A stretch of 64,000 bases of DNA from Alphaproteobacteria bacterium (GTDB taxonomy: Bacteria > Pseudomonadota > Alphaproteobacteria > UBA828), in the NCBI GenBank assembly GCA_963667705.1, contig OY763937.1, forward strand, positions 515,821-579,820. Direction: 5' to 3'. Of this stretch, positions 2,097-47,748 are shown piece by piece. The first letter of the stretch is position 1; every line of letters begins with the position of its first letter. The notes beneath the pieces are model-generated. The model saw nothing but the letters and a program-made list of their open reading frames with translations. It did no database searches and was not told the origin of the DNA. Both the position numbers and the translations under genes were made by a program.

Positions 2097-2156
2097 GGAC
2101 GGAAAGCGCGGGCCGCGCAGCCGCAGGCGACCGAGGATCCCTCTCCGGGGCTGCGT

Positions 2157-2981: not shown

Positions 2982-3073
2982 TCTTCTCTCCCTCCCTTGC
3001 CGTGCGGGCTCGGCGTGAAGTATGGCCGGATCGCGCTATCATGCCAGACATCGATGGCAGCGAGGGATCCGCC

Positions 3074-17876: not shown

Positions 17877-18136
17877 CTCCTGTCTCGCTCGCTACCGGGG
17901 ACGCCGAACCTGAGCCCACCCGGTCGCCGCGGACTGCGACTGCCGGGCCGCGGATCGGAGACCGAGCAGCCAGGGAGTGCTCGGGTCTTCAGAACCAGGG
18001 GTGCGACGCTGCGGAGGAGGCCGTGTCCGATCCATGAGTGCCACCCTCCCAACAACGTGCCGCAAGGAGGCATGCAGGTTTCGGTAACGTGACGGTGTCC
18101 TGGTCGGTATGGAATCCGGGCCGGTCTGGCGAATGG

Positions 18137-25192: not shown

Positions 25193-25326
25193 GCTGTCGC
25201 TCGGGGTCTCGGCACGACGGCAACGGCCGCGAAGCGGCCAGACACGCGTGCATGCCTATTGTGCCTCGATAGCATAGCCTTCAGGTCACTTGATGGGTTG
25301 TCGACGACTGTGCATGGTGCTTGATT

Positions 25327-25338
25327 TGTCATGTGACA
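25327..25338. promoter_or_regulatory. Perfect 12-bp palindrome TGTCATGTGACA nested inside a larger inverted repeat (CACTTGATG...CATCAAGTG) upstream of the PKS gene. Candidate operator.
   Basis: Direct reading of the sequence. It lies in the 250-bp gap between the RND gene stop and the PKS start. Confidence 0.3.
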
Positions 25339-25444
25339 TCAAGTGGTTGACATTGGAGTCATCCAGGGTGATTGCGACGGGAGATTCGGCAAACGACTCT
25401 CTGCTGCCCATGTTGTCCGCCGTAAAGCGCGCGACGGGCCGCGA

Positions 25445-28400: not shown

Positions 28401-28600
28401 CGCCGCGATTCGAAATCCGGGTAGTACTGGACGATGAGTTGGAGCCCCGAAAGCACGCCGCCGACGATCAGCAGGATCATCAGCAGGTTGGCGGCAACGG
28501 GATTGCCGGCGAAGTAGGCGATCAGCCCCGACTTCAGGCCAGTCGGGCTCGGCTGCGCCGCGGGCGCGGCGTCGGTGCTGCCGGAGTCGGTCATGCTCAT
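25445..28600 (-). CDS. RND-family efflux transporter permease (AcrB/HAE1-like)
   Basis: 1051 aa, 12-TM architecture with two large periplasmic loops. The N-terminus is typical of RND permeases. Confidence 0.9.
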   Translation of the reverse strand: MSMTDSGSTDAAPAAQPSPTGLKSGLIAYFAGNPVAANLLMILLIVGGVLSGLQLIVQYYPDFESRRAAVSVLYPGASPQEVEEDINRRIEEAVVGLPGVERVVSTASQSLGKVTVEMATFADSDAVFNDIQSAIDGIENFPPVRAEQPDVQLLTVSHEVMTLAVVSSSLSEDGLRRAAEDLRDSVMALPSVSQVSLKGTRDREITIELSEEELRRHSLSIAEVSRTIRGASLNLTMGEIRTDTGSVVLHTVAKKSVGQDFEDIPLITRVGGTIVTLGDIATIRDGFVDEDVVTEVNGHPAVLVRVDAAEQQSVVDMAEDIRNLLAAYSPPEGVSVGIWNDNASPVFDRLLEIVKNGAIGTILVFISLVLVFELRIALWMTVGIPLSFVGSLLFFDAADLTLNLGTIFGFFLLVGIVVDDSVVVGESIAAEREKGKNALDAAISGARAMVGPLTIGAITTILAFLPFLFITSPAFQIVNVFPYVAIFVLLVSLVAAFFILPAHLSHERRWSLSPLSDVQSQVGGWLDEVRDRVVAPAASWAVRNVWLSIIGALLVLVAAVLLLGTDTVRIVLFDENLSSTDNVQADIYLPVGAPFEETLAAADRFAEAAHGLNDELEGTPVDAVSMIVGNIDAEWKVRERLNGSHLASVRLHLSDQVDRSASAPEVERAWRKAVGPVANLERVEFRSGRIAARPSVSYSLKHDDMETLRSAAAELRSGMATVPGIYGIHDDLALGKRHFEIELTPVGKAAGLTPALIGKQLRSSFHGADVQRIQRGREEINVVVRYPAERRRSLSELASERIHRPGGGEIPLSLVATITEKREPATLTRIDGKRAARVNGRADTAVITPIQARREVRDQIIPDLLAAYPGLTVEVEAGARDEGDMLETLAVLVPIVLIAIYALIAAFLRSYWKPVIAVVGIPIAFAGAIVSHWILGWDLTTMSIFGMIAVGGVVVNDALVLLDRYNTIRRDNAMIPAIAAAAAATRQRFRPVFLTTLTTVLGISPLLYERGDELIAFVPFVVSMVGGLVFSTLSILFVLPALVMIAAGRHD

Positions 28601-28612
28601 GGCCCGGCTCCG

Positions 28613-29797
28613 CTATTCCGACGCCTGCGCGGCGCTGACCTCGACTGCCAATCCCTCTCGCGCCCCCGTCAAGGTGCCGACGACGACGCCCTCGCCCGCG
28701 TCGAACGCCTCCACAACCACGCCAACGTCGGCGTGCCCCAGCGTGCGCGGCGCGACGGCCTTCAGCGCGCCGCCTTCGACGATCCAGACGCTGCCCCGGT
28801 CCTGAATTGCCGATTCCGGCAGTACGAGCACGTTGTCATGCACGGGCCCAGCGATCGAAACCTCCACGAACGAACCGGGGAGCGGCAGCGTCTCGGCCGG
28901 GTGAGCCGCAGCGAATTTCAGGAAGACCCTCGCGAGACGAGACTTGGGACCGATGATCGCAGACGTGCGCTCCACCACAGCGTCGTACGTTCCTGATGCA
29001 GTCCGAACCGTGGCGGAGCGACCGATGGCCGGCGCGAGATAAGCCAGACTGTCCTGCTCGATGGGCGCTCTGACCTGGAGCGCGTCGGTCCGATACACGG
29101 TGCCCAATGACGAGGCACGGCCGACCAGCTCGGCGGGACCGACGAACTGGCCGACATCGATATCCGCCGCTGCGACCCGGACGTCGTGAGGAAGGGATAT
29201 CTCCGTTCGATTCAGCCGGAGCTGCGCCAGCTTCTCTTCGGCCTGCGCCTTCATGAGCGCGGCTTCCGCCTTCGCTATGTGTGGCGCGCGGCGAACCGAA
29301 TCGGGAATGTCGGCTCCGGGGTGTTCGCGCGTGAACGAGGCTACGCTTTCCTCCGCCTTTGCCTTCTCGATCTGGACCCGGGCCGCAGCTTTCGCGACCT
29401 TCGCGGCGGCGACTTCGAGCTCGAGCTCGTACTCGGCCGGATCGACCCTGATGATGGTCTCGTTCGCGGCGATCGACCCGCCGTTTCTGAAACTGGGCGA
29501 GACCCAGACCACACGGCCGCCGACTTCGGACGAGACTCTCACGTTCCCGTGCAGCGTGACCCCGCCGGTTAGGTCGACCGTCAGCGCGTGTTCTGTTGGC
29601 GTCGGTTGAATGACCGCGACGGTTGGCTTGGCCTGCTCGACCGCCAGGTCGGAGATGGGGTCGCGATCCACGCCGCTCGGCGCCTGCGCGAAATAGAGCG
29701 CGACTCCGACGGCGGCCAATATCAGGATCAGCTGCGCGTAGCCCAACCATTTGGGACGGCCGGATCTACCTTGGGGCTCTGTCGTTTCTTGTGCCAT
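28613..29797 (-). CDS. RND efflux periplasmic adaptor (membrane fusion protein, HlyD family)
   Basis: N-terminal TM anchor, coiled-coil and lipoyl/beta-barrel regions. It lies immediately upstream of the RND permease, 12 bp away. Confidence 0.85.
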   Translation of the reverse strand: MAQETTEPQGRSGRPKWLGYAQLILILAAVGVALYFAQAPSGVDRDPISDLAVEQAKPTVAVIQPTPTEHALTVDLTGGVTLHGNVRVSSEVGGRVVWVSPSFRNGGSIAANETIIRVDPAEYELELEVAAAKVAKAAARVQIEKAKAEESVASFTREHPGADIPDSVRRAPHIAKAEAALMKAQAEEKLAQLRLNRTEISLPHDVRVAAADIDVGQFVGPAELVGRASSLGTVYRTDALQVRAPIEQDSLAYLAPAIGRSATVRTASGTYDAVVERTSAIIGPKSRLARVFLKFAAAHPAETLPLPGSFVEVSIAGPVHDNVLVLPESAIQDRGSVWIVEGGALKAVAPRTLGHADVGVVVEAFDAGEGVVVGTLTGAREGLAVEVSAAQASE

Positions 29798-30059
29798 CGC
29801 TCATTCCGAGTGCGTCTGACCAGGGCTCCACCGATCCGACTGCGCCAAGCGTACAGCCCGCGGCGCCGGACGTTGCTATCCGCCCCGCTTCCTTCGTATT
29901 CGACAGCAAATCACGTGAATTGTGAGGAGGCCGAAACCGTCGCTCCAAAGTTCAGCGACGGGTTGGCTGCCGATCGCCGCCTCGCTGGGCTTGACAGTCC
30001 TCAGTGTACCCTGCCTCCGTCGTGATTCCCTGTCAGCCAGGGCGGATAGGAGGCACACG

Positions 30060-31802
30060 TCAAGCCACCGCGGATCGCGCGACTTCATTCGCGCTTGAAT
30101 CCAGTGCGCGTTGGAAGGACTCCAGCGCATCCTCCAGCCCATCTCCCCGGTAGCGAAACTCATCGGGTATGGTCTGGTAGCGCGCCTGGGCTCGCTCGAA
30201 CGACGCCTGTCTCCGATTACTGAATTCCTCCGCCTCCGAAACGCGGTCAGGCACCGCCTCTGGGAACATCTGCAGCTCGCTCCTCAGGAAGCTCAGAAAG
30301 TCATGGATGGCGATCTGCTGACGGCCGATCCGCTCGAAGTGGTGACCCATGGCCGCCAGGTAGATCGCGTCCGGCAGCATGCGGGGGTAGTCCTTGGAGA
30401 CCTTGCCGATGAACTTCGAATAGGCATGAAGCTGCTTGGCGGAGAGACAACGGCGAACGCGCATGAAGGCTGCATCGATGTCGTTCCTGCTCCTGGGCTT
30501 TCGAAGATGCCCGACGGGCTTCAGATGCCTGAACAGAGTGAGGCAGCGGCCGAAGTAATTCTCCAGGGTCGGATCGTAGAGTGTGGCGAGCACCCGTTTG
30601 TATCCCTCGATCAGTGTCCTGTAGTCCATCTCCGGCTTGAAGTTGAGAGGCATGGCATTGGTTCCGATCGGCGCCTCCAGAAGCCGGTTTTCCGACTTCA
30701 TGCGCTCGTACATGTCCGTGCCCTTCAAGGCGGTCAACAGGTAGATGGGGGCTACGGGAATGCCGGTCTCCTGGATGAACTCGATCTGGGCATCGAACAC
30801 GCCCTCGTCATCGCCATCCAGACCCAGGATGAACCCGCCTTGGACCTGCATCCCACGCTGCTGGATTTTTCGGACGGCAGTGAAGATGTAGTTTTCCTGG
30901 TTCTTGCTGGTGTTCTGCGGCTTCTTGGTCTTGAGTAAGGCCTTGGGGTTCGGGGTCTCGATACCGACAAACACGGTATCGAAGCCGGCCTCGATCATCG
31001 CATCCATCATTGCGTCCATCAGCGCAAGATTCGCACTCGCTTCCGTGGTCAGGGTGAAGGGATATCCCTTGCTCTTTTGCCATTCGGCTATCGCCGGCAG
31101 CAGGTTCATGGCATCCCGCTTGTTGCCGATGAAGTTGTCGTCAACCAGAAAGACCGGGCCTCGCCACCCCAGACGGTAGAGGGAATCAAGCTCCTCCGAG
31201 ACCTGTTCCGGCGACTTGGTGCGAGGCACGCGGCCATAGAGCTTGATGATGTCGCAGAACTCACAGTCGAACGGACATCCCCGAGAGAACTGCACGCTCA
31301 TGGTGGCGTAGTTCGTCAAGTCGATGAGGTCGAAGCGGGGAACCGGCGTCAGGGTCACGTCCGGCTTCCGTGTTTCCCGATAGATTCTCTTGGCCGTGCC
31401 GGCTTCCAGGTCCCGAAGGAAATCCGCAAAGATTTCCTCGGCCTCGTCCAGCACGAAGTGGTCCACGCCTGCGATGTCCTGGTGAAAGGTGGTCGGATGA
31501 GGCCCGCCGGCCACCACTGGAACGCCCGCGTCGTTGCAGCGTTCGACCACGGCTCGCAGCGACAAGTGTTGCGTGATCATCGTGGACGTGAACGCAAGAT
31601 CCGCCCACTCAAGATCGGCGTCGCGCAGCGTACTCACGTTCATGTCCACCACGCGGAGCGCATAGCCGGGAGGGAACATCGCGGCGACGGTCAGAAGCCC
31701 GAGAGGTGGAAAGGTCGCCTTGAGCCCCGACATCTCGAGCGCGTGGTCGGCCCCCCAGAAGGTCGGCGGCTGCTCCGGGTAGACGAGCAGAGCGTTCGGC
31801 AT
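30060..31802 (-). CDS. B12-binding-domain radical SAM protein with a C-terminal DUF4070 (class B radical SAM, methyltransferase-like)
   Basis: CxxxCxxC motif (SRGCPFDCEFCD), an N-terminal cobalamin-binding-like domain, and a C-terminal extension typical of the HpnR/BchE-like group. Confidence 0.85.
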   Translation of the reverse strand: MPNALLVYPEQPPTFWGADHALEMSGLKATFPPLGLLTVAAMFPPGYALRVVDMNVSTLRDADLEWADLAFTSTMITQHLSLRAVVERCNDAGVPVVAGGPHPTTFHQDIAGVDHFVLDEAEEIFADFLRDLEAGTAKRIYRETRKPDVTLTPVPRFDLIDLTNYATMSVQFSRGCPFDCEFCDIIKLYGRVPRTKSPEQVSEELDSLYRLGWRGPVFLVDDNFIGNKRDAMNLLPAIAEWQKSKGYPFTLTTEASANLALMDAMMDAMIEAGFDTVFVGIETPNPKALLKTKKPQNTSKNQENYIFTAVRKIQQRGMQVQGGFILGLDGDDEGVFDAQIEFIQETGIPVAPIYLLTALKGTDMYERMKSENRLLEAPIGTNAMPLNFKPEMDYRTLIEGYKRVLATLYDPTLENYFGRCLTLFRHLKPVGHLRKPRSRNDIDAAFMRVRRCLSAKQLHAYSKFIGKVSKDYPRMLPDAIYLAAMGHHFERIGRQQIAIHDFLSFLRSELQMFPEAVPDRVSEAEEFSNRRQASFERAQARYQTIPDEFRYRGDGLEDALESFQRALDSSANEVARSAVA

Positions 31803-32403: not shown

Positions 32404-35400
32404 CTACATACTCAACCCTCGACTCCTGCGGAGGTGCTTTCCGAGTTTTCGGTCCCGCTTCTCCGCCTTCTCGCGCAGCTCGCGAAGTTTCTCGGGATCG
32501 TTGAGAATATGGGCGAATCCTTTCTGGTTCTCGTCCGGATCCAGGGGCTTGGCCGACGGCCTGTCGAGCGTGTGAGCGAACCCCCGTTGTTCCCGCTCGC
32601 CCTGCCGCCCGGGCCGCTGTTCAGACTTGCGGCGCGCTTCGAGAGTGTGAGCGAAGCCTTGCTTCTGCTTGGGCGTCGGCTCGGGCCGGGACTGTGATAC
32701 CTCCGGCTTTGCGGCGCGTTCGCGGTTGTCGCGGAACCGGTTGCGCAATTGCTCCACGGTGAGCTGTGCCCGGGACCTGCCGATGGTCATGGCGTCGAGG
32801 TAGGCGCCGTACCTGTCCTCGTTGGCGAGGACGGCTTCGCCGGTGGCGGCCAGCATCTCAGCCGCCTCGCGCCATTGGGGCCAGACGTCGAGACGGCTGA
32901 TGGGAAGGCCCTGCTCGCCAGCCTGAGCCTCAAGAACCTTGTACGCCTCGACATGCCGCTCCGCGGCGGCGAGATAGCTCTCGACCGTCTCGCGCGCCAC
33001 GGTCTCGTCGTCGTGATACGCGAGAAGCTCGTCGAGCACGCCGCGTGCGCGTTCGGTCAGCTCGGGATAATCGGCGAGCGCGCGGACGCGACGGATCAGC
33101 GCGTCGTATCCGTCCATCAGCAAGAGCGGAAGATCCGGTTGCTGGGAGCGTGCGACGAGATCGTTCCAGTCGCGCTGCAGCTCCCTGTAAAGCGTTCGCC
33201 AGTCGGGCGGGGGCTCGCGTTCCGGTCCGGGCGCTGCTGCTTCCGAAGTCCGGGGCGGCAGGGACTCTTCGGGAGCGGGTGCGGCGATCCCGGCCGCTAT
33301 GGTGTCGACGATCTGCGCTTCTTCGCGCGGTGCGTCCTGGCGCTTCGCGTCTTGGCGCTGCGTGTCCTGCCGCGCCCGGTGGGCGGCCCTGGTCGTCACC
33401 GACCTGAGGTACTTGCCGGCGCGCGTGTGCTGTCTGCCGAACTCCTCGATTTCGCCCCGGCCGATACCGGCGCGCTCGGCGAGCAGGCGCTCGAACACCT
33501 GCGGACGACGGCGGAACGATGCGGCCTGCTTCATCAGCGCACCGTGCCGGCCGAGAGTCTCTCGGAAAGCCGGCGTCAGCGCCACCGCGTCGCCGTCGGC
33601 GCGCGCACGCCGGCGAAGCTCGTCCCAGGCCGCCATCACTTGCGTGCGCTCCGCCGCGAACGCGTCCACGGCGGCGCCGTGGCGCCAGCCGTTGACGGCG
33701 TGACGGATTTCCTGGGCAATGCGCATGATCGCGTTGTCGTTCACGGCCACTGGTGTCTCTACTGTCGCGCGGCCCTCGGCGGATACTGCCTGCCCTTCGC
33801 CGGGTCCCTCGCGCACCGCACCCGGCTGTCGATTTGCCCCGTTCCCGACGCCGGCCCGTCCAAGCTGCGCTTGTTCGCTCGCTTCGCGCCATGCACCGTC
33901 GGTGACGTAATCGAGCGCCGCCTCCTTGGGTTGCGAGCGCGACCAGCGCTCGGCCAGATAGGCACGGATGTCGCTGTCCAGCACCGGCCGCTCGGCCTCG
34001 TCCTCGGGGAGGCTCTCGGCGATGTCGAAGACGATGGGCGAGCGGTTGACGTAGACGTCGATCCCCTCGCGGTGCCGTGTGGCTGCCGGATAGATCGTCT
34101 CCCGCGCCGGCCGGTCGTCAATCAGCAGGAAGGCGCGGTCCACCGTCAATCCCTGGGCGGACGCGATGGTCATGGCATAGCCGTAGTCGAGACGGATGTT
34201 GTCGTGGTAGTCGCGGATCTCGTCATGGCGGAACTCCACGCATCGCCCGTCGTCGGTGCGCGCGGTGATCTGAACCGATATCTCTGGTTCGGGCTCGCCC
34301 CTGTCCAGATGCGAAGCCCGCCCGGCGCGGCCACTGGCCAGCCGGTTGCGGGCTTTGCGCGTGACCGCCGCGCCTTCCACCTGCCGCGCCTCGATGTCCT
34401 CGACGGTGACCACCGTGCCGTTGAAGAGCTGCTTCTCCCACTGGGTGGCGCCGATGCGCAGCCGGTCGCCCACCGCGATCTCCAGCGGCTCGGTGACCCG
34501 CCCGTCGAGGTCGCGGCTCACCTCGATCACCGCGCGCTTGATGTCCGTCCGTTCTCCGAGCACGCGTTCCCGCATCAACCATGACAATGCGCGCGCCTCG
34601 GCCTTCGTGCGCGCCAGCACCACGGCGGATTTTTCGGGCTCGTCCTTCACGAGCCGCGCCCAGTCGTCGACCAGGCGCCTCAGCGTCTTCTCCTCGTCGT
34701 AGCAGAGATGGAGCCGGCCCCTGAGCCGCCACGCCTCGATCGCCTGCGCGGCTTCGCCGTCCCTGAGCGCTTCGGAGACCGCAACCTGCCACGGCGTGAA
34801 CAGCGGTTTGCGATCCATCGCCTCGTACTCGGCCATGATGGCGTCGCGTTCCTGCGAGCTCGTGAGTCCCGCCCTGAACCGCGCTTGCTCCGGCGTCTCC
34901 CTGTGGACATGGACGAGCACGTCCTCGAGGTCTGCTTTCTGGCGCCGGATGCGGTCGACGCGGACGCTGCCGGCGACGTCGCGGATCAACCTGAGCCCCG
35001 GACCCGCCTCGACCGGCTGCTGTTGCCTGGTGTCGCCGGCGAACACCACCTTGGCGCCGTGGCGCTCGCAGAGCTGCAGGATGTGATGCGCCTGGCGCGT
35101 GGACAGCATCCCTGCCTCGTCCACCACGATCAGGGTGTTGCGGTCGACCTCGAGTTGCCCCTTCGCCGCGAGCTTCAGCAGCTTGTCGACGCAGTAGGGA
35201 CGCGCGTCGCAGTCGTCTCCCAGCGCCACCGCCGTACGCCACGCGACGGCGGTGGGCACGATCTCGTAGCCGTGCTCCCTGTGCAGGTCGGTGATGGGCC
35301 GGAGCGTGGTGGTCTTGCCAGACCCCGCCGCGCCCTCGATCACGGCCACACGGCCGCCCATCGCGGTGGCGTGCCGGATCGCCAGAGACTGCTCCTGGCT

Positions 35401-36735
35401 CAAGGGATAGCCGCCGGCCAGGAGCGTCTCGACCTTGTGCCTGACCGCATCCTCCGGAATCCCGTGGCCGGTATCGGCGGCCATGGACGATGCCATGTCC
35501 TTCACCGCCTGTTCGAGGCCGAGGTTGTGGCGGGTGGAATAGATCTCGGTATGGGCCATGCCCGCCAGCGACTCCGCCGTGGGCTTCTTGGGCTCCAGCC
35601 GCTCGATCTCGGGGTTGCGGCGCAGCCGCTCGATGGCGGTCTTCAGAGCCTCGGGGCCGATCAGGCCGGCCGCCGCATTGGCTGCCGCCTCCACCATGTC
35701 GGGGCGCCGGAACACCGCCTCTTCCCGGGCCAGGTGGGCGGGAAGGTCGTCGAGCCGGGCGGTCAGCTCCCGGATTTCTTCTCGTCCGATCCCGGCCTCG
35801 CGGCCGGTCACGGACCGGATCAGCTCTTCGCGCTCGACAAAGCCCTGCGCCTCCTCGCGCCAGCGCCCGTGGCGTACCTCGGGATCGTTGTCGTGGGACT
35901 TGCCCGCCCGCGTCAGCTTGTTGACGCCCGCCATGCGCGAGGCGTTGCCGCGCGACGGAATGCCCAGCTCTCCGGCCTTGGCAACGATCGTCTTGCGCCG
36001 CTTCGACCAGAAGACCTGCAAGTCTTCCGGCATGCCCTCGATCCGGGTGAAGGCGGAATCGGGACCGTACTGCTCTATCCGCACGCCCAGACGCTCGCGC
36101 AGGTTCCAGGCCAGGGCGTTGCGGTAGACCGCGCCCGCAGCCTTGGCCCAGCTGTAGACCGGGTACTGGTGCATGGCCCGCCACTTGCCGTCCTCCTGCG
36201 TCCGGGCCGCGTTGAAGATGACGCAGTGGGTATGGAGCTGCGGGTCGTTCTCACGGCTGGTGCCGTGCTGGAACATCGCCGCCGCGATATCGGCAGGCAG
36301 GGCCCTGATCCGTCCCTCTCTGTCCCGGATCCGCGTATACGAGCAGTAGCGGAGCACCGTCTCTTCCAGGGCCACCCGGGCGGCGTCGTTGTGCGCCTGC
36401 TCGATCTCACCACGCAGCTCGGGATCGGCGACGGCCCAGAGCGCGGACACGCTCTTGTCGGCCGAGAAGGTCATGTCGAGTCCCGCCGAGCGGTTCTCGC
36501 TGCCTGCGTTCCTGGTGAGTTTCTGGGACCCGTCCGGCGCGAAGCCGTGGTAGAGCCGGTGGAAGTCGCTGCTGTCGACCTTGCCGCCGTTCTCGAGGCC
36601 GAGCAGGCCCGCAGGATTGAACCAAACCCCGTCCGGCTCCTCGCCGGCCGTGTAGTACTCGTTGGGATGGCGGAACGAGCGCTGGCTCTCCAGGTAATAG
36701 GCGGCAGACGCGGCCTGCGCGAGGGTGGCTACCAC
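32404..36735 (-). CDS. traA: Conjugative relaxase-helicase TraA (MobF/TrwC family, Ti-plasmid type)
   Basis: The N-terminal relaxase domain has histidine-triad-like HTHCVIFN and YY motifs. A central RecD-like helicase carries Walker A (GAAGSGKTT) and Walker B (VVDEAGM). 1443 aa. GTG start. Confidence 0.9.
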   Translation of the reverse strand: MVATLAQAASAAYYLESQRSFRHPNEYYTAGEEPDGVWFNPAGLLGLENGGKVDSSDFHRLYHGFAPDGSQKLTRNAGSENRSAGLDMTFSADKSVSALWAVADPELRGEIEQAHNDAARVALEETVLRYCSYTRIRDREGRIRALPADIAAAMFQHGTSRENDPQLHTHCVIFNAARTQEDGKWRAMHQYPVYSWAKAAGAVYRNALAWNLRERLGVRIEQYGPDSAFTRIEGMPEDLQVFWSKRRKTIVAKAGELGIPSRGNASRMAGVNKLTRAGKSHDNDPEVRHGRWREEAQGFVEREELIRSVTGREAGIGREEIRELTARLDDLPAHLAREEAVFRRPDMVEAAANAAAGLIGPEALKTAIERLRRNPEIERLEPKKPTAESLAGMAHTEIYSTRHNLGLEQAVKDMASSMAADTGHGIPEDAVRHKVETLLAGGYPLSQEQSLAIRHATAMGGRVAVIEGAAGSGKTTTLRPITDLHREHGYEIVPTAVAWRTAVALGDDCDARPYCVDKLLKLAAKGQLEVDRNTLIVVDEAGMLSTRQAHHILQLCERHGAKVVFAGDTRQQQPVEAGPGLRLIRDVAGSVRVDRIRRQKADLEDVLVHVHRETPEQARFRAGLTSSQERDAIMAEYEAMDRKPLFTPWQVAVSEALRDGEAAQAIEAWRLRGRLHLCYDEEKTLRRLVDDWARLVKDEPEKSAVVLARTKAEARALSWLMRERVLGERTDIKRAVIEVSRDLDGRVTEPLEIAVGDRLRIGATQWEKQLFNGTVVTVEDIEARQVEGAAVTRKARNRLASGRAGRASHLDRGEPEPEISVQITARTDDGRCVEFRHDEIRDYHDNIRLDYGYAMTIASAQGLTVDRAFLLIDDRPARETIYPAATRHREGIDVYVNRSPIVFDIAESLPEDEAERPVLDSDIRAYLAERWSRSQPKEAALDYVTDGAWREASEQAQLGRAGVGNGANRQPGAVREGPGEGQAVSAEGRATVETPVAVNDNAIMRIAQEIRHAVNGWRHGAAVDAFAAERTQVMAAWDELRRRARADGDAVALTPAFRETLGRHGALMKQAASFRRRPQVFERLLAERAGIGRGEIEEFGRQHTRAGKYLRSVTTRAAHRARQDTQRQDAKRQDAPREEAQIVDTIAAGIAAPAPEESLPPRTSEAAAPGPEREPPPDWRTLYRELQRDWNDLVARSQQPDLPLLLMDGYDALIRRVRALADYPELTERARGVLDELLAYHDDETVARETVESYLAAAERHVEAYKVLEAQAGEQGLPISRLDVWPQWREAAEMLAATGEAVLANEDRYGAYLDAMTIGRSRAQLTVEQLRNRFRDNRERAAKPEVSQSRPEPTPKQKQGFAHTLEARRKSEQRPGRQGEREQRGFAHTLDRPSAKPLDPDENQKGFAHILNDPEKLRELREKAEKRDRKLGKHLRRSRGLSM

Positions 36736-36913: not shown

Positions 36914-36946
36914 CGGCACAGCGCACCTTGGTGCATAGGTGTGCCG
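36914..36946. promoter_or_regulatory. Candidate oriT inverted repeat (CGGCACAGCGCACC/TTGGTGCATAGGTGTGCCG) in the traA-traC divergent intergenic region
   Basis: A nested palindrome in the region where Ti-type oriT sites lie, between divergent traA and traC. Confidence 0.3.
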
Positions 36947-37061: not shown

Positions 37062-37448
37062 ATGGCGGTCTTGACCGAGTGGAGGGCGCGGAGGATCATG
37101 CGCAACGCTCTGGAATCGCTAAACTTTGCGGACGGAGGAATCATGGTGGTCAGGCGCTACAACGAATCGGACATCGACTTCGAGGCCATCGATGCGGACC
37201 TTGCGAAGCTGGCGCCGCCAAAGCTGAGCCTGAAGGACGTGCTGGACCGCTTGCGGGAGCGCATGCTCGAGCAGCGGGCCAGGGGCGTGACGGTGGCTCA
37301 GATGCACGAGGTTCTGAAGGCGCGCGGCATCGAAATGGGTGAGCGCAGTCTCAAGGCGTTCCTCGACAAGGGAGAGCTGCCGGGACGCAAGGCGGCGAAG
37401 GTCGCGGCGCAGATCGGCGGCGGGGATTCGGAGGGAGATCCCTTCTGA
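37062..37448 (+). CDS. Small relaxosome accessory-like protein (TraC/TraD-position gene), divergent from traA
   Basis: Position and orientation match traC of Ti-type Dtr modules. No sequence motif recognised. The start is uncertain (ATG 37062 or 37098). Confidence 0.35.
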   Translation: MAVLTEWRARRIMRNALESLNFADGGIMVVRRYNESDIDFEAIDADLAKLAPPKLSLKDVLDRLRERMLEQRARGVTVAQMHEVLKARGIEMGERSLKAFLDKGELPGRKAAKVAAQIGGGDSEGDPF

Positions 37449-37824: not shown

Positions 37825-38760
37825 TCATGCGCGCCAGACCGGGATACCCATCTGCCGGGCCTTGTCCATCAGGTTGCCGGTGACGCCGCTGCCGGCGAAG
37901 GCGATCACGCCCTTGGGCAGCAGGTCGAGCAGCGCGTCGTTGCGGCGGAACGGGGCGGCGCGTCCGTGCGCCTTCCAGTCGGGGCGGACGATCACCTGGT
38001 CCACGCTGCGGGCCTCGGCCCACTTGGCCGCCACCGTCTCGATGCCGGGGGCGCCGCCGTGGACGAGGACCATGTTGCCGTGCTTGGCGCGGGTGCGGTC
38101 GAGGACGCTCCAGACGGCGGCGGGGTCTGTGACCTCCTTGCCGCCGGTGACCGCGACCAGGGTGCCCTCCGGCACGTGGCTGCTGATCTCCCGGTCCTTG
38201 CGGGCGCGCCTGTAGTCCCGCGCGTCGATCGCTGCCGAGGTCAGCGTTCCGGTCTTCGAGGTATGCGATCCGTTGCGGGGGCGCCACACGTCGCCGGTCT
38301 CAGCGCGGTAGGCGTCGGCGGCGGTTTCGCGCAGTCTCTCGAAGGCGTCCCTGCGGTCGCCGAGATTGCGCGCGCGGTCCGTGAGGAGCTGCAGCTCCCA
38401 GGCCTTCACCTCGGTCCCGTCCTGGGCGGTCTCGAGGTCCTTCATCTCCGGGGTAATGCGGTCCACCGCGCGGTCGAGGCGGCCGATCTGTGCATGGAAG
38501 CAGTTGACGATGCTCCAGAGGAGCGCCTCGCGCTCGTCGGCCATCTGGGTGCCGTCCACGGTGATGCCTTCCACCATGATGCGGATGGCCTCGCCGAGCG
38601 CGCCGGTGGCGTCCTCTTCGTCCCAGATCTCCCGGCTGTCGATCTCACCGCGCTCAGGCGCTGTGCCGTAGAGTGCTGCGTTCTCGCAGATGGCGGCGGT
38701 CTGTGAAGCGGTTGCGGTGTCCTGGTTCGTGTCGATCATGTCGACCTCCCTTTCGTTCAT
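37825..38760 (-). CDS. Hypothetical protein with a C-terminal SLOG/DUF2493-like nucleotide-binding-fold domain, recalled as common on Rhizobiales ICEs and plasmids
   Basis: The C-terminal region LVAVTGG...VLVHGGAPG...IAFAGSGVTGNLM resembles YspA/DUF2493-type SLOG domains. Confidence 0.4.
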   Translation of the reverse strand: MNEREVDMIDTNQDTATASQTAAICENAALYGTAPERGEIDSREIWDEEDATGALGEAIRIMVEGITVDGTQMADEREALLWSIVNCFHAQIGRLDRAVDRITPEMKDLETAQDGTEVKAWELQLLTDRARNLGDRRDAFERLRETAADAYRAETGDVWRPRNGSHTSKTGTLTSAAIDARDYRRARKDREISSHVPEGTLVAVTGGKEVTDPAAVWSVLDRTRAKHGNMVLVHGGAPGIETVAAKWAEARSVDQVIVRPDWKAHGRAAPFRRNDALLDLLPKGVIAFAGSGVTGNLMDKARQMGIPVWRA

Positions 38761-38824
38761 CCTCCGGGGCGGTGCGCCCCGTCGTGATGCGTTGTTGGGA
38801 CACGCGCCCGCAGGGCCGGCACCT

Positions 38825-39095
38825 TCTCCTAGAGTTTCTTGGACCGGATTCGGTGCGGAAGATGCCCGATTTGGTGCGGAAGTCGGCGTTCTCAGGGTCT
38901 GGGAGGGCCGGCGCGCCGCGTTGCCGGCTTGCCGCGTTACGAGTAGGCCTTCTTCAGGACTCTAGCGCCGGCCCGACACGCCGGCCCCGCGCTGAGGGGC
39001 CGGCGTGCCCCACGCGAGGCGTTGGAGGGTTCAGGCAAGCCGACTTCACGGTCGGGCATCTTCACGGCCGGTCCTAGAAACTCTTGGAGAAGGCC
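38825..39095. repeat. Imperfect palindrome of about 270 bp with roughly 60-bp arms and internal GGTGCGGAAG direct repeats
   Basis: Left arm CCTTCTCCTAGAGTTTCTTGGACCGG...GGTGCGGAAGATGCCCGA...GGTGCGGAAGTCGGCG matches the reverse complement of the right arm (CGACTTCACGGTCGGGCATCTTCACGG...CCGGTCCTAGAAACTCTTGGAGAAGG). Confidence 0.6.
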
Positions 39096-39362
39096 GGAAC
39101 GGAGCGCAGCGGAGTGGAGGACCCGCAGGGTTGTCGGACCGAGGACGCGTGGCACAATGGCGGATCACGACGGGGTACGACCTCCCTCTCGACACGCTCG
39201 ACATCCCTTGTTGTTTCTTTCGCTGCCAGCGCATTTGCGGGATGCGGCGGGGAGGGGAACAGGGACTCCGATCTAGCTGCATGAAAGGAGGGAGCGGCCT
39301 GCCGTCGGGGTATGACGGAGGCTCGCTCCCAAGGTCGGAAAGGAGAATAGCGGTGCGCGCCG

Positions 39363-39731
39363 TCACCGCGCACTGGAGAACGCGGGATGCACCGGCGGCG
39401 AGGTCCAGGGCACGAGGTCGCGGTCGACCAGCATGCGCGCGACGGTTGGCTTGACGGCGTCGCGGTCGTCGAGCAAGCGGGGACCCCGATGGTCATCGAA
39501 CAGGTGAAGAGCATAGTAGAACCGGCCCGGCTTCGGGCTGGCGATGTCGGGGCGCTTGCTGACCGTTCCCACCGTCTGATCGAAGACCACGATATCGCAT
39601 TCATGGTCGAGGCGCCAGCGGAAGCGGATGTCACGGATCGAGAAGTCGCAGCTCGACATGGCGTGTCTCCGGGGAGGAAACGGGAGCGCGAGCGCGCGCT
39701 TGGGCGCGCCGCGCCCCGGTCGTTGACACAT
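39363..39731 (-). CDS. Hypothetical small protein
   Basis: ORF with reasonable composition in the conjugation-module region. No motif recognised. Confidence 0.3.
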   Translation of the reverse strand: MCQRPGRGAPKRALALPFPPRRHAMSSCDFSIRDIRFRWRLDHECDIVVFDQTVGTVSKRPDIASPKPGRFYYALHLFDDHRGPRLLDDRDAVKPTVARMLVDRDLVPWTSPPVHPAFSSAR

Positions 39732-39800: not shown

Positions 39801-40253
39801 CTAGAAAGGTACCGTGCCGCTGTCGAGTGCGTCGGTAGCGGCGGCCGCAACCGGCGCCGCTGCCTCACCGTTGGGGGCCTTGGCACCGCTGCCGTTGTGC
39901 GTCGCCGGGCGCTCCAGGAACTGGATCCGTGAGCCCGGAACGAGGATGATCTCGGTCGAGTAGCGGTCGCTGTCCTCGCCCTCCTTGCGCCACTTCCGGG
40001 TCTGCAGCTTGCCCGCGACGTAGACCAGCCGCCCCTTCTTCGCGTGCTTCTCCAGCATGTCGATCAGGCCGCTCTGGAAGCTGACGACCCTGTGCCACTC
40101 CGTCCTGTCGACCCTCTGGCCGGTCTTGTCGATGAAGGACTCGTCGGTCGCTACCGACATGTTGGCGACGCGCCCGCCGGAGGCGAGGCTGTTGATGGCG
40201 ACGTCGGCGCCCAGGCGCCCGATGATCTGCGCGGAGTTCAATCCGAAGGACAT
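39801..40253 (-). CDS. ssb: Single-stranded DNA-binding protein (SSB)
   Basis: OB-fold N-terminus (IIGRLGADV...WHRVVSF), a Gly/Ala-rich tail, an acidic C-terminal end, and an AGGAGA RBS 6 nt upstream of the ATG at 40253. Confidence 0.6.
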   Translation of the reverse strand: MSFGLNSAQIIGRLGADVAINSLASGGRVANMSVATDESFIDKTGQRVDRTEWHRVVSFQSGLIDMLEKHAKKGRLVYVAGKLQTRKWRKEGEDSDRYSTEIILVPGSRIQFLERPATHNGSGAKAPNGEAAAPVAAAATDALDSGTVPF

Positions 40254-40617
40254 TGTTCGTCTCCTCATATCCAGGTTTCTGACGATGGGTGACGAGCGGA
40301 CCGGGGACACTCTCTCGACCCCCTCCCTGCTCACTCTTCGCGAAGCCCTTCTCGAACTCTCCTCTGCCGCCTGCCTCGACGGTCACGGGACAGGCGCGGA
40401 GCTTGCGGACCTCGCGGACCGTACGGATGACGGCGCAGGATGCCGTGAAGGCCGAGTGGCGTCGGTTTACGACGGCGCGGCGCCGGGGTCGGAGGAACGG
40501 GTGGAAGCGGCCGCACCCTCGCGGCGCGAAGCGCTGCACGTGGACACGGGGTGGGGCGCGGTCTCGGTGGCCGATTACCGCGTCCCCCCAGCAGCAGCCC
40601 CGGCGCCGGCGAGCGGG

Positions 40618-41427
40618 TCAGGACCAGGCCGCGTAGCGCGTCATCGCGGAGGTGTCGGACATGATCTCCACCTGGTCGTGTCCGAGCCCGGCGAAGACCA
40701 GGCAGGCGGCCACCTCGGCCTCTGAGTCGAAGCTGCCGTGACAGACTCCGGTGTCGATCTCGATCACCGTGAAGCGCGCGGGCCAGGCCGGCAGCCCGCG
40801 GTGCTCGGACGAGCGCACGTAGCTGCGCCGCGCGCAGGGCTCGCATCTGGATGCGTTCCCGGCCGGGGCGCTGCATTCGGTGCACAACTTCCTGGCGCGC
40901 CGACGCCAATATATCTTCCGGGCGTAATCCCTGCGCGACGGGCGGCCCGACTGTAGCCTGGCGCAGGCCTCGCAGCGCGCGGCGCCATCGGGCACGGGAT
41001 CGCCGCACGCGCCACATCGGCCATCGAAGCGGCGTGCAGCCCAGCGCTGCTTGTCGCCGTCGTTTCGCCTTGACCGGCAAGGCTCGCAGCGGCTGCTCCC
41101 TTCGGTGGGCGGGCGAACGCCGCACCGGACGCAGGCGCCGGCGGCGTGGCGCTCGTGGTAGCGCCTCTTGCTGCCGGCGCGGGCGTTGCGGCGCTTGGCC
41201 TCTGCGCGCTTGCCGCCGTAGAGGGCACCGGAGGCCTTGGCCCGGGCGTATCTGGCGCGGTCCGCCCTGCGCCTCCTCTCGCCGCATTCGGCACAGAGGC
41301 GGCGATCGGCCTCGGGCGGGGCTGCTCCGCACTTGGGGCATGTCCCCGCTGCGATCCTCTCCTCAGCCAGGCGCCTGTCCCGCTCGCGCTTGCAGCGGCG
41401 CCGCTTCTCCGGATCCCTGGCCGGCAT
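40618..41427 (-). CDS. Hypothetical protein with four tandem CxxC...CxxC zinc-ribbon repeats and a C-terminal globular region
   Basis: Repeats CPKCG..CAECG, CVRCG..CEPC, CGACG..CEAC and CTECS..CEPC, each followed by an Arg-rich spacer. GGAGGA RBS 7 nt before the ATG at 41427. Confidence 0.5.
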   Translation of the reverse strand: MPARDPEKRRRCKRERDRRLAEERIAAGTCPKCGAAPPEADRRLCAECGERRRRADRARYARAKASGALYGGKRAEAKRRNARAGSKRRYHERHAAGACVRCGVRPPTEGSSRCEPCRSRRNDGDKQRWAARRFDGRCGACGDPVPDGAARCEACARLQSGRPSRRDYARKIYWRRRARKLCTECSAPAGNASRCEPCARRSYVRSSEHRGLPAWPARFTVIEIDTGVCHGSFDSEAEVAACLVFAGLGHDQVEIMSDTSAMTRYAAWS

Positions 41428-41513
41428 CCGACGATCCTCCGTGCCATGGTGCAGGTGACGGGGATGGGGGGGCGGCCGGAGCGCCCGTATCGGACGCCCC
41501 CGCCGAATGCCTG

Positions 41514-41840
41514 TCAGCGCTGGCGCGACATATGACCCCAGACAGCGAGGCAACCCCAGTATTGCACCCCGCTGTCTTCGAGGTTCACGGCGGTGCAGAC
41601 GATGATCTCGTCACGCGCGGGCCGCATCTGCTTGACGTTGCTCAGGCTGGTGACCGTGTTCCGGGACCGGCGCCTCTTCTTCCCCCGCGCGGGGGGCGTG
41701 GCGATCGGCACGGGACTGATCTCGCCGTCGGCGGACGAGTGGAAGCGCTCGACGACATACTTGTCGCCCTCGAGGCCGCGCCCGAAAATATGAACGAGAA
41801 ATGTTTCGGTGTTGCCGCGCTTCGCGCCGCCGATCTGCAT
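41514..41840 (-). CDS. Hypothetical small protein (108 aa), upstream of and co-oriented with the zinc-ribbon protein
   Basis: GGAGGG RBS directly upstream of the ATG at 41840. The longer ORF upstream of this start has junk-like composition. Confidence 0.4.
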   Translation of the reverse strand: MQIGGAKRGNTETFLVHIFGRGLEGDKYVVERFHSSADGEISPVPIATPPARGKKRRRSRNTVTSLSNVKQMRPARDEIIVCTAVNLEDSGVQYWGCLAVWGHMSRQR

Positions 41841-42998
41841 GACTCCCTCCGCCAGGTGGATGGTTGGAAGCTGCGGGACCGCCTCTCTCCCCGAGCGCCG
41901 CCTCCGCCGCGCTCCGTCCCGGCCTTCCTCTTCCTCCCGAGGAAGCTCAAGCGGCGGGTCGCAGAGAAAAAATGCGGGTGCCGCTTCGGCGCATGTCGTC
42001 TCTTTTCGCGTATGCCGCGGGGTGCAGGATTGGCCCGAACGAAGGTGCCTTTCAATTGCGAACGTTCCGCCTACGTTCGCCTGTATGGATACTCTCGATC
42101 GCTCCATCCGTGACTTGAATCCGGCTCGTCCGAAGCGCTCCGGGCTCTCAGGCCGGCGCTTCGGGGTGCTCGGCGAGCCCGCCTTCGCCGCCTTGCTCAT
42201 GCACGCGCCCACAAGCCCGGATGCTCGGGGCGAACCGTCCCGCGGGTACGGATCATGGCTCATGCGCGGCAGATTGTGTCTGCCGATGTTCTCGTTTTGT
42301 AAGTGGACGAATTTGCGAACGGCAAATTCGTCCATTCCCGGGCCTTCGAGGTGCCGCTCCAATGCACCGCGACTGTCGCGGGCAGAGGACGGCACTGGCA
42401 TGGGCAAGACGCGCAACGGCTGGCTGACCACGGAGCAGGCGGCGGCGCACGTGGCGTCGAGCTCGCGCACCCCTGAGCGCGATCAGGCGCGGCGCGGCGG
42501 GCCAGCCTGTGTCTGCTGTTGCGAGCGCGTGCACGAGCTGCGGGACGACCTCGACAGCCGCATCGCGGAGGACGAGCGCCCCGCCGCCGCCGACTCGAAG
42601 GACGATTGCGGCCGCGACGGGAACGAAACCCGAAAGGCAAAAAAAATAATTCGGTGTATGGAAGATCCTTAAAGCGTCGACATGGGCGGACATGAGCGGA
42701 CATAAGCGGACATATGAGGGCAGCAAGCTATTGACATCGAACGGGTTCCTCCGGGTGTCACCCTTGAATCAATTGGTTCCCCTGACCATTTTCAACGACC
42801 GGACGGAGGTGTGGGGGCGATGTTAAGCGCGGCAAGTCCCGATTACATGAACGAGCTTCTCACCGGTCTCTTTGTTGGTGGCGCCGAGAGACCGGGATCG
42901 CAGGCGGTGGGGGCTGGAGGCGTCGCGCGGACCGGGCACAAGCCGTGCCGCTGCCGACCGATTGAGGCGCCATTCTCGAATGAGGGGAGATACACACA

Positions 42999-45991: not shown

Positions 45992-46983
45992 TCGACGCCG
46001 GCGATGTGCTCACCTGCGCAAACGATCGAATAAGCGCGATCGATCCGGGTAATCGTCGACAATCCGACCCGGTGCGTTCGCATGTTCAGGGAAAAGGACT
46101 CGCACGGTCGGCGCCTCACGCGCGGTGGCAGCGCCCGAATTCGGTACGAGGCCAACCCGCAAGGTCCTCCATGTTCCGATCCGCCTTGTTGGGCGGAATG
46201 TGGGGCCGATCGCCGGCAAGACGAGAAAGCGGCGCCTACGCAGTGAGTTATCCGAGGCGAAGGCTTCCACTCCCATAACCATCGGATAAGCCCCAATGAT
46301 GCTGCACGGCGTCCGACGCACGACTCAAGGCGGAGGTAGTGGTTAGCCTATTCCCTCCTGGAAGACTTTCACCCGCTACCCAACTGCCAGTTAGCTTCGT
46401 GCACAGACTTCCTGACCCCGTGCTGGAAGGTTACGGCCTTGCCCATTAGCCATGATATTGAAGTCGAGGGCATATCTCCTGCCATCAATCTCCGTGATCA
46501 AATGCGGCGCGGCTGCCACTTCCAATTTTGAAACGATGGGACATTTCGAGCCGGAGCCGCTCCAGGTAACCGGAAAGCCGCAGAAATCGACGCTTTCCTC
46601 TCGTCTGGCAAGCGGGCGCCTTATGCAAACCGTGTCATCTCAAATTGGCAGAGTTCAGAAAGTCTGAGGTTATCGGCGTTGCCGCACTCGTCGTCATCTT
46701 CCAACGCTGGTGAGTCGATCACCGCAGTCTATGGAGATTGACTAGACCGTCACCTCAATGTATTGACCCGGTGAGTCAATTTAGAGCGCTTGGCATTATC
46801 AGCTTGCACTTGCGGGACACAGCAATAGGATGCAGGCGACGGAAACGTACAGATTATCGGTGACCGTGAATGGGCATCCACCCGCGGTAACCCGGCCAGT
46901 TCCTGTACTACTTCGAATTTGCGTTGAGTCTGCACAAGATGGCGCGTCGGTGAGCCTTTGCAGCGTAAGGGAGACAAGTCATT

Positions 46984-47397
46984 ATGGCCGTATTTTCTGA
47001 AACAGAATGTAGGCATTGCGGGAGCAAAGACCATGCTTCAGATGATTGCCCGCACGATCATGGCTTCTTAGGCATCGGAGCATCAACTGAGTGCGCTCAC
47101 TGCGGAAGCAAGGAGCATTCAACCGAAAACTGTCCGCATGATCGTGGTCTCTTAGGCATCGGTGCATCAAAGGTGTGCGCCCACTGCGGAAGCAGAGAAC
47201 ACGCATCAGATTGCTGTCCGCATGATCACGGGCTTTCAGGTGTCGGTGGATCGACGCAGTGCGCTCACTGTGGGAGCAGCAACCATGCGTCGGATGATTG
47301 CCCGCACGATCATGGTTTCTTAGGCATCGGTGCATCAATTGAGTGTGCTCACTGCGGAAGCAAGGAGCACGCGACAGAAGATTGTCCACATGAGTAG
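46984..47397 (+). CDS. Protein made of five tandem CCHC zinc knuckles (CX2CGX3HX4C, retroviral-nucleocapsid/CNBP type), each followed by a PHDHGFLGIGAS linker
   Basis: The translated sequence shows five repeats of CAHCGSKEHxxxxCPHDHGxLGIGAS. GGGAGA RBS upstream of the ATG. The antisense ORF is a shadow of the repeat. Confidence 0.7.
   Translation: MAVFSETECRHCGSKDHASDDCPHDHGFLGIGASTECAHCGSKEHSTENCPHDRGLLGIGASKVCAHCGSREHASDCCPHDHGLSGVGGSTQCAHCGSSNHASDDCPHDHGFLGIGASIECAHCGSKEHATEDCPHE
47008..47394 (+). repeat. 81-bp tandem DNA repeat, about 4.8 copies, encoding the zinc-knuckle units
   Basis: Direct reading of the sequence. Confidence 0.8.
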
Positions 47398-47748
47398 TCG
47401 GTTGATCAGAGCCACAGGTCAGTACTCTCCCAGCGCATCGGTGGCAGGGTGCGCCATCCTCGTCCTGTTTGCCGGGCCCGCAGAGTGCCGCGGTTTTTCA
47501 CCGTTGCAAGCGATACTCGCGGGCCCCTTCGGTGAGGCATTCCGAGGCACCGCGTTGTCCCGAGGAATCCATGAACGCACATACACGCCCCTTAGCTGGG
47601 GCTGGGGAGGGGTTCGGCTTGCCCCGACGGTCGTACGGTGGCGAAGGCAGGAGGAAGCGGCGGATCGGTTCGTCCGCGACGACACGCGTCACCTTGGGAG
47701 ATCGGCAACGGCCAAGAAGGCTTTTCACCGATGCGTAAGCTGGTCGGA

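Follow-up and report, generated by a model that had tools for sequence, protein, structure and literature searches.

Architecture of the element and its locus

The 64 kb stretch of alphaproteobacterial DNA analysed here (GenBank assembly GCA_963667705.1, contig OY763937.1, positions 515,821–579,820; hereafter the window, to which all coordinates refer, with the forward strand as the + strand) contains a large imperfect palindrome located 5′ of a DUF2493/YAcAr (SLOG-domain) gene and about 2 kb from the gene for a TrwC-type (MOBF) relaxase-helicase. This palindrome makes up the inner stem of a folded element that extends over ∼400 nt (38777–39175). On our best reading of the sequence, this element would be an Frpo-like single-stranded-DNA (ssDNA) promoter or priming hairpin belonging to a new sequence class. 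Its parts and the principal genes around it are as follows.

32404–36735, − strand: TrwC-type (MOBF) relaxase-helicase gene, 1443 aa (PF08751, E = 8.5e-68; AAA_30)
37825–38742, − strand: DUF2493/YAcAr (SLOG-domain) gene, 305 aa (PF10686, E = 3.5e-23)
38777–38809, + strand: 5′ arm of the outer helix, the template side in the promoter model described below (helices 1–2 covary)
38822–38890, + strand: left (5′) arm of the inner hairpin (helices 8–10 of the consensus structure, 23 pairs with compensatory changes)
38852–61 and 38873–82, + strand: two invariant GGTGCGGAAG modules, with TGGTG unpaired in an asymmetric loop and CGGAAG paired
38891–39034, + strand: GC-rich apical core with two sub-hairpins (helices 11–13), variable in length across the family
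39035–39097, + strand: right (3′) arm of the inner hairpin (inverted repeat, fold, covariation)
39044–51 and 39060–67, + strand: two invariant CTTCACGG partners with one bulged A each, facing the left-arm modules
39098–39131, + strand: linker GGAGCG.AGCG.A..GGAG, then the mini-hairpin ACCC-GCA-GGGT (nearly invariant, linker mostly unpaired)
39143–39175, + strand: 3′ arm of the outer helix, the non-template side in the promoter model (inverted repeat, covariation)
39801–40253, − strand: SSB gene (PF00436)

The palindrome had been described in a first-pass annotation of the window at 38825–39095, and both arms were found at that position. Their outer 26 nt (38822–38847 and 39068–39093) are 92% complementary; a second copy of these 26-nt arms is absent from the 64 kb, and two matches were obtained in none of 100 shuffles. 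Pairing continues inwards with GAAGATGCCCGA/TCGGGCATCTTC (38858–69 and 39052–63, 100%) and then AAGTCGGC, the paired blocks of the inner arms being split by two asymmetric internal loops. The ∼90% arm identity given earlier is accurate for the paired blocks and does not hold for an ungapped 60-nt arm, which the asymmetric loops interrupt. The internal repeats reported with it are present: GGTGCGGAAG occurs twice on the left arm (at 38852 and 38873, a spacing of 21 nt) and nowhere else in the window, and CTTCACGG occurs twice on the right arm with a spacing of 16 nt. The original size estimate of ∼270 bp falls short of the whole structure, as the palindrome is enclosed by the outer helix (33 nt, 79% complementary). 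When the inverted repeats of the whole window are ranked, the outer helix comes first and the palindrome arms third.

Secondary-structure prediction, which had been proposed as a check, places the ssDNA fold far beyond shuffled sequences. The 311-nt ssDNA fold has an energy of −103 kcal/mol, compared with −72 ± 4 kcal/mol for the shuffles (z = −7.45), and the full 453-nt fold gives z = −7.9 (−7.92). Other gaps of the leading region (40255–40625 and 41540–41900) fold in an ordinary manner, with z = −0.5 and +0.3, respectively. The surrounding 2 kb have a G+C content of ∼69%. Protein coding across the element (a 72-aa open reading frame, ORF, at 38937–39155, and others) was considered and rejected: relatives show single-base indels in the stems, and the G+C content at third codon positions is flat across 38750–39300. 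No Rfam family matched at the gathering score and a permissive search returned only chance-level matches (E > 3); a blastn search of PLSDB with the 551-bp region gave no match.

Conservation and strand preference of the fold

More than 2,000 homologues of YAcAr were found, and 16 related copies of the element were collected from genomes and metagenomes, all of them 5′ of the DUF2493/YAcAr gene and in the same orientation, with never more than one copy on a related contig. The distance from the element to YAcAr is mostly ∼20–35 nt (∼60 nt in three copies). In all eight loci fetched by way of the protein (73–93% identity), a gap of 480–700 bp 5′ of YAcAr holds the element, with the SSB gene upstream in seven and the TrwC relaxase gene downstream in five; in L130 a coupling-protein gene takes the neighbouring position instead of the relaxase gene. 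Wherever the contig is long enough, the gene order is SSB, small ORF, element, YAcAr, TrwC relaxase. Scans with DNA patterns added two genome copies and six metagenome copies, again all 5′ of YAcAr. The genome scan used the loose pattern GGACCGG-N-AAGATGCCCGA against 185,579 reference genomes, and only L052 and L053 were genuine among the 119 matches listed, with one copy each. Conservation in related elements had been named as informative for the function of the palindrome; the element is kept across YAcAr identities of 60–93%, with compensatory changes.

These distributions bear directly on an earlier suggestion that the palindrome is a miniature inverted-repeat transposable element (MITE), for which multiple copies elsewhere had been named as the deciding sign, and on the wider idea of a selfish palindromic insertion without a function for its host element. 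The terminal inverted repeats of 26 nt, the length of ∼270 bp and the intergenic location all have the appearance of such an insertion, and a direct flanking duplication is not evident by eye; the flanks of the palindrome (GCCGGCA and CCGGAAC) instead continue the pairing. A MITE is nevertheless extremely unlikely given the single copy in the window and in each of the two genuine genome matches, the metagenome matches that all lie at the same place and in the same orientation relative to YAcAr, and the retention of the element with covarying stems and invariant asymmetric loops.

Covariation was assessed in an alignment of 12 sequences, for which the consensus structure contains 116 pairs in 13 helices. 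Cells are paired in 96.5% of cases, compared with 35–45% when the partners are slid by 1–3 columns, and compensatory double changes occur at 33 of the 116 pairs, compared with 4–7 in the slid controls and 22.6 ± 2.2 in shuffled alignments (none of 500 reached 33). Judged from this alignment, base-pairing is under selection. The 12-bp helix between the two modules illustrates this pattern, reading GAAGATGCCCGA/TCGGGCATCTTC, GAAAGTTTCGGA/TCCGAAACTTTC, GAAAGTCGCCGA/TCGGCGACTTTC and GAACGTCGCCGA/TCGGCGACGTTC in different elements, while the motifs of the asymmetric loops between the covarying helices (two GGTGCGGAAG and two CTTCACGG) remain unchanged. GGTGCGGAAG is invariant in all complete copies, and the CTTCACGG partners correspond to alignment columns 143–148 and 159–165. 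The two invariant bulge modules may be protein-docking sites.

The apical core varies much more. About 150 nt of it are deleted in L196 and insertions of 60–100 nt are found in L125, L130 and L137; to judge from these sequences, the apex tolerates large indels and the core is dispensable or plastic. The natural length variants lie at L196 1340–1617, L125 3458–3981, L130 805–1325 and L137 6856–7343. In L196 the core is gone with both bulge modules and the outer helix kept, and the core insertions of the other three are apparently hairpins themselves.

The predicted fold is also strand-specific. When the 16 copies are folded with DNA parameters, the + strand exceeds its complement in stability every time, by 5–21 kcal/mol (mean 14 kcal/mol), and among the variable paired columns 19 contain A.C in the mRNA sense (equivalent to G.T on the + strand) versus five with G.T (binomial p = 0.007); the copies share ancestry, and both counts therefore overstate their independence. 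Variable wobble or A.C cells make up ∼3% of cells, to which invariant G.U pairs at two positions add 24 cells. As a control, Frpo1 and Frpo2 of the F plasmid (L251, 11400–12032 and 6165–6643) show a difference of 8–11 kcal/mol in favour of the transferred strand. The stability bias of the + strand and the A.C/G.T columns argue against a structured leader in the mRNA as well as against a cruciform or other symmetric duplex site.

A structured RNA could take two forms: a long 5′ leader of the YAcAr mRNA, transcribed from the − strand, or a non-coding RNA of the + strand. Covariation alone cannot distinguish RNA from DNA, the sequence folded as RNA is also strongly non-random (z = −9.2 and −6.3), and a + strand RNA would produce the same strand bias. 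For the leader, however, it is the sense strand that is the less stable one in every copy, and the one-sided changes are mostly of the A.C type in the sense orientation. For the + strand RNA, the promoter scan found no promoter to the left of the structure. Together with the small overall share of wobble pairs and the lack of an Rfam match, these points make a structured RNA of either kind improbable.

Transferred strand and promoter-like signature

The orientation of the element with respect to conjugative transfer was derived from a site upstream of the relaxase gene.

36923–36943, + strand: oriT-like site, hairpin GCACC-TT-GGTGC followed by ATAGGTGTG (covarying hairpin, invariant 9-mer)

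The 400-bp gap upstream of the relaxase gene was aligned in six related elements. The arms of the hairpin covary (GCACC/GGTGC, GCACT/AGTGC and GCAAGC/GCTTGC), and the adjoining A(T/C)AGGTGTG (36935–36943) is invariant apart from T/C at position 2; the other flank of the hairpin is not conserved. AYAGGTGTG occurs once in the window, at 36935. In the MOBF oriTs of F and R388, an inverted repeat is followed by the nick ∼8 nt later, the F nick being GGGGTGT/GGTGC. We predict by analogy that the nick lies after GGTGT (36942/36943). In the F record, the strand carrying the nick motif serves as template for both the leading genes and the tra genes, and the same arrangement is seen in the window. Because the MOBF-type oriT layout lies on the + strand, with the geometry of the F nick motif, we infer that the + strand is the transferred strand. 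The DNA to the right of ∼36942 would therefore enter the recipient first, making YAcAr, the element and ssb a leading region, with YAcAr as the first gene past the predicted nick that is templated by the transferred strand. The palindrome had been assigned to an intergenic region of the transfer module; it is intergenic and lies 2 kb from the relaxase gene, but leading region is the more fitting description.

The element is situated 1.9–2.2 kb past the predicted nick, on the transferred strand. In combination with the compensatory changes and the better folding of this strand in all 16 copies, this position supports the first of the functions originally proposed, a single-strand origin or hairpin used after transfer. 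We regard it as very likely that, in the leading region, the transferred strand adopts this conserved fold and that the fold is functional.

Another of the original proposals, an iteron-bearing replication or partition site, belongs to a wider group of explanations in which the site acts as duplex DNA: a cruciform, or an array of repeats, to which a regulator, a partition protein or a replication protein binds, or else a second oriT. The direct repeats on one arm are 21 nt apart, approximately two helical turns, and GGTGC is also present in the stem of the oriT hairpin. There are, however, only two repeats per arm, they are located in hairpin loops with covarying stems on either side, and the adjacent genes include neither rep nor par. 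Compensatory changes across 200–380 nt need pairing within a strand, and the strand asymmetry speaks against a symmetric site. As a second oriT, the palindrome fails because the nick 9-mer AYAGGTGTG is absent from it and the oriT-like site lies 1.9 kb away. The idea that the module motif is linked to the arm of the oriT hairpin (TTGGTGC) was likewise rejected, as the oriT arm changes among relatives and the modules do not. A duplex-DNA site of any of these kinds is highly improbable.

On the 3′ side of the element, the + strand displays a conserved promoter-like signature, for which the following features are proposed.

39131–39158, + strand: candidate promoter, with TTGTCG (−35-like) at 39131–36, a 16-nt spacer ending in TGG at 39150–52, and CACAAT (−10-like) at 39153–58 (family conservation)
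38743–38788, − strand: predicted 46-nt leader with the ribosome-binding site GGGAGG (from the geometry of the model)

Throughout the family the order is GGGTTG (TTG at 39131–33), a 16-nt spacer, GTG (TG at 39150–51) and a hexamer (39153–58). The hexamer is CACAAT in the window, and variants in relatives include CATCCT, GATCCT, AATCAT, CAGACT and AAGAAT, with only position 2 (A39154) and position 6 (T39158) invariant. The resulting pattern TTGnnn-N13-TGn-nAnnnT, equivalent to TTGnnn-N16(TGn)-nAnnnT, is found in register in 13 of 15 complete copies and has two occurrences in 128 kb (both strands of the window). In the consensus structure the hexamer is located within the internal loop that separates helix 1 from helix 2; facing it on the other arm is GTTGGG in the window, and the A and the T of the hexamer are the mismatched bases. 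Because the 3′ arm of the hairpin is the non-template strand for transcription towards its base, it is only in the folded strand that the boxes are directed into YAcAr. In duplex form they point away from YAcAr, and the YAcAr-sense strand has CCCAAC at the −10 position. Boxes within the inner arms (the TTCACG modules as −35 and TAGAGT as −10) were rejected owing to wrong spacing or unconserved bases, and on the 5′ arm no conserved boxes were found for a promoter directed towards the loop. The signature on the 3′ outer arm is suggestive of a promoter.

The model that follows from this geometry begins with the relaxase, which would nick the + strand at ∼36942. The + strand would enter the recipient 5′ end first, bringing in the YAcAr gene and then the element. 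The 60-bp inner hairpin would snap shut and join the halves of the outer helix, which are 330 nt apart, so that the outer helix and the junction could mimic a duplex promoter with TTGnnn, a 16-nt spacer ending in TGn, and nAnnnT on the 3′ arm. The −10 hexamer would sit in the internal loop with its A and T already unpaired, as is predicted for the window and its nearest relatives. Host RNA polymerase could then run down the stem into the single-stranded template, producing YAcAr mRNA before a complementary strand exists. Transcription is predicted to start at ∼38786–38788, taking the start as ∼6–7 nt past the hexamer, which would give a leader of ∼46 nt carrying GGGAGG. The transcript may also prime synthesis of the complementary strand, and the inner hairpin, being very stable, may slow the conversion to duplex DNA, as has been described for F. 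After conversion the promoter would turn off, as the boxes would then face away from YAcAr. RNA polymerase binding, the transcription start, priming and a role as a roadblock are deductions from the sequence and its geometry.

Two observations concern the leader. The complement of the linker segment 39098–39120, between the inner hairpin and the candidate −35 box, reads GGTCGCTCC in the mRNA sense and could pair with the ribosome-binding region of YAcAr. The ribosome-binding-site region is itself directly repeated, as CGACCTCCCTTTCG/CGACCTCCCTCTCG, at 38742–38755 and 39178–39191, flanking the whole structure; this repeat is confined to the subfamily closest to the window.

The remaining features of the leading region are listed below.

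37144–37448, + strand: small gene, divergent from the relaxase gene
39283–39330, − strand: hairpin followed by a T-run, likely to be the terminator of the SSB/small-ORF operon (inverted repeat; kept in relatives)
39363–39659, − strand: 98-aa ORF (ORF list, synteny)
40618–41553, − strand: 311-aa zinc-ribbon-repeat ORF, 5′ of ssb (conserved in L126, L127 and L129)

A second terminator-like site is located at 39350–39369. YAcAr to the left of the element and the 98-aa ORF, the SSB gene and the zinc-ribbon ORF to the right are all templated by the transferred strand. The YAcAr homologues have lengths of 304–306 aa, which supports the ATG at 38742 as the start codon. The SLOG fold of DUF2493/YAcAr is presumably shared with DprA, which handles incoming single-stranded DNA. 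In L123, the closest relative (its YAcAr is 93% identical), a 489-aa reverse transcriptase of the group II intron type (RVT_1) is encoded at 1603–3072 on the opposite strand, and this insertion sits between the small-ORF terminator and an intact element (L123 3539–3964).

Farther away, cargo-like genes occupy 15381–31802, to the left of the relaxase gene, and include a reductase-sulfotransferase fusion, a 2351-aa type I polyketide synthase, an RND efflux pump with its HlyD partner and a B12-binding radical SAM protein. A stretch of low G+C content (46000–53000; 55–62% compared with ∼70% elsewhere) contains genes for TbpB-like lipoproteins, and a tRNA-Gly(GCC) gene at 59767–59841 could mark an integration boundary. 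Among the scanned ORFs, none was identified as a type IV secretion gene.

Comparison with known ssDNA promoters

Frpo is a 328-nt sequence from the leading region of F, in which a stem-loop presents −35 and −10 boxes; RNA polymerase is recruited to it in vitro, and early expression in transconjugants depends on it (PMC7690428; PMC9849209). Large stem-loops precede the leading-region operons in F and pESBL (PMC9849209; PMC12672017; PMC11541004), and three sequence-unrelated classes of hairpin with mapped start sites have been described in these plasmids (PMC12672017). One F hairpin stalls complementary-strand synthesis and prolongs early expression (bioRxiv 10.64898/2026.01.09.698686). Homology searches have placed Frpo-like sequences in thousands of elements (PMC11541004).

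The window element shows the positional, structural and strand characteristics of the Frpo/ssi type. In common with the Frpo and ssi elements of IncF and IncI plasmids (Frpo1 and Frpo2 of F, ssi1–3 of ColIb-P9; ssp class 1), it is a long imperfect stem-loop (∼300–400 nt) that lies on the transferred strand within the leading region, 5′ of genes templated by that strand and near an SSB gene; the transferred strand outfolds its complement, and folding is required for a promoter-like signature to appear. The differences are considerable. The hairpin is carried by a probable conjugative or mobilizable MOBF-type element of Alphaproteobacteria, with ∼69% G+C in the surrounding 2 kb, and it has no A+T-rich UP-like apex; its candidate boxes lie in the outer helix, the basal arm of a three-way junction, rather than within the main stem; two invariant bulge modules are present; and its downstream gene is DUF2493/YAcAr rather than ssb, psiB or ygeA. 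The best blastn E-value against Frpo/ssi was 0.27, with matches in unrelated parts of the F leading region.

Other known systems offer partial parallels. In pESBL and F, ssDNA promoters of classes 2 and 3 precede ardA/klcA and M.EcoGIX, and they demonstrate that unrelated hairpins can act as ssDNA promoters (PMC12672017). They were found, like the window element, by homology-independent hairpin mining; their starts were mapped by 5′ RACE in E. coli transconjugants, whereas the window element is known from sequence. Single-strand origins (sso) of rolling-circle plasmids are likewise orientation-specific folded ssDNA that recruits RNA polymerase for single-strand synthesis, but they serve vegetative lagging-strand replication, are defined as a class by the RS_B and CS-6 motifs and have no tie to a downstream gene. 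The MOBF oriTs of R388 and F share the GGTGC motif and a hairpin on the transferred strand; the palindrome does not carry the nick 9-mer that is invariant at the oriT-like site 1.9 kb away. We file the element as a probable variant that would work in the manner of an ssDNA promoter or ssi, outside the Frpo sequence family.

Several points weigh against a promoter of this type. The promoter model leaves the large inner hairpin, the two bulge modules and the 40-nt linker unaccounted for. The boxes match the σ70 consensus at 8 of 12 positions and a consensus promoter scan called none in or near the element; one copy has TTT in place of TTG and another does not have TGn. In F the boxes seem to lie near the hairpin apex (our own, unconfirmed reading of the F sequence), whereas those of the window are at the base. 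No comparable hairpin precedes the SSB operon in the gap folds examined, and F and pESBL have several. The element has neither sequence similarity to known Frpo/ssi nor an Rfam match, and the shared ancestry of the copies lessens the weight of the strand statistics. On balance, promoting YAcAr transcription from ssDNA is, by a modest degree, the more probable main job for the element, a candidate role with which priming or stalling would be compatible.

A related explanation is that the element is a single-strand initiation site rather than a gene promoter. A primase or primosome would recognize the folded transferred strand, with the modules as recognition sites, and the element would prime or stall complementary synthesis. 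The structural, strand and positional evidence is the same as for a promoter, and the invariant loop motifs resemble protein-binding sites. Both activities have precedents, in that Frpo itself primes DNA synthesis and stalling of conversion is known for the F ssp2 hairpin (PMC7690428; bioRxiv 10.64898/2026.01.09.698686). A Toprim gene, a candidate recognizer (for example Toprim/DUF7146), is located upstream of the element in L128 and L129, with a 77-aa ORF in between, and in three distant plasmids it immediately precedes the gap that bears the hairpin. The window and most of its close relatives, however, lack a Toprim gene next to the element, extension of a primer from this site would cover only ∼2 kb towards the nick, and an initiation site would leave the invariant TTG/TG/A/T signature and the strict linkage to the YAcAr start codon unexplained. 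We consider this explanation rather unlikely, though it ranks ahead of a structured RNA.

The three distant plasmids (L001–L003) are M. nodulans pMNOD01, a Lichenihabitans plasmid and Paracoccus pAMI8, each with the arrangement toprim, a gap of 240–350 bp, DUF2493. The gaps (L001 5750–5985, L002 5637–5988 and L003 5675–5988) differ in their folding: that of pAMI8 forms a long hairpin (z = −8.4), that of pMNOD01 a weaker one (z = −2.7), and that of the Lichenihabitans plasmid is unclear (z = −1.6). They share an GGCCTTCTC-AGAG block with the base of the inner stem of the window element, and their hairpins display no promoter signature and little strand bias. Long hairpins also stand in front of distant DUF2493 genes on rhizobial, Paracoccus and Methylobacterium plasmids, a hint that the pairing of a hairpin with DUF2493 may be ancient and widespread. 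DUF2493/YAcAr is present on more than 700 PLSDB plasmids.

A more speculative possibility, to which we give little credence at present, is that the element typifies a new class of ssDNA establishment element of alphaproteobacterial MOBF elements, in which the inner hairpin, the two bulge modules and the linker would form a protein-docking platform that couples early expression, priming and delayed conversion to duplex. Candidates for docking are the DUF2493/SLOG protein, a primase or a protein transferred from the donor.

ssDNA promoters explain how anti-defence and establishment genes are expressed within minutes of plasmid entry. To our knowledge, those confirmed by experiment all come from enterobacterial IncF and IncI plasmids, and our literature search found no paper tying ssDNA promoters to Alphaproteobacteria. 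In the alphaproteobacterium S. meliloti, the expression of pESBL leading-region genes is strongly reduced (PMC12672017). The window element would be the first ssDNA promoter candidate from high-G+C Alphaproteobacteria of which we know, and it is backed by covariation and a strand-specific fold, neither of which accompanies most predicted Frpo-like candidates. The proposed design is testable, in that the key −10 bases would be unpaired in advance and the promoter would read correctly only when folded. The difference in stability between strands, combined with the comparison of A.C and G.T columns, could reveal ssDNA elements in other phyla independently of homology. For the alphaproteobacterial family itself, the element provides a starting point for asking why YAcAr would be the first gene to be expressed in the recipient.

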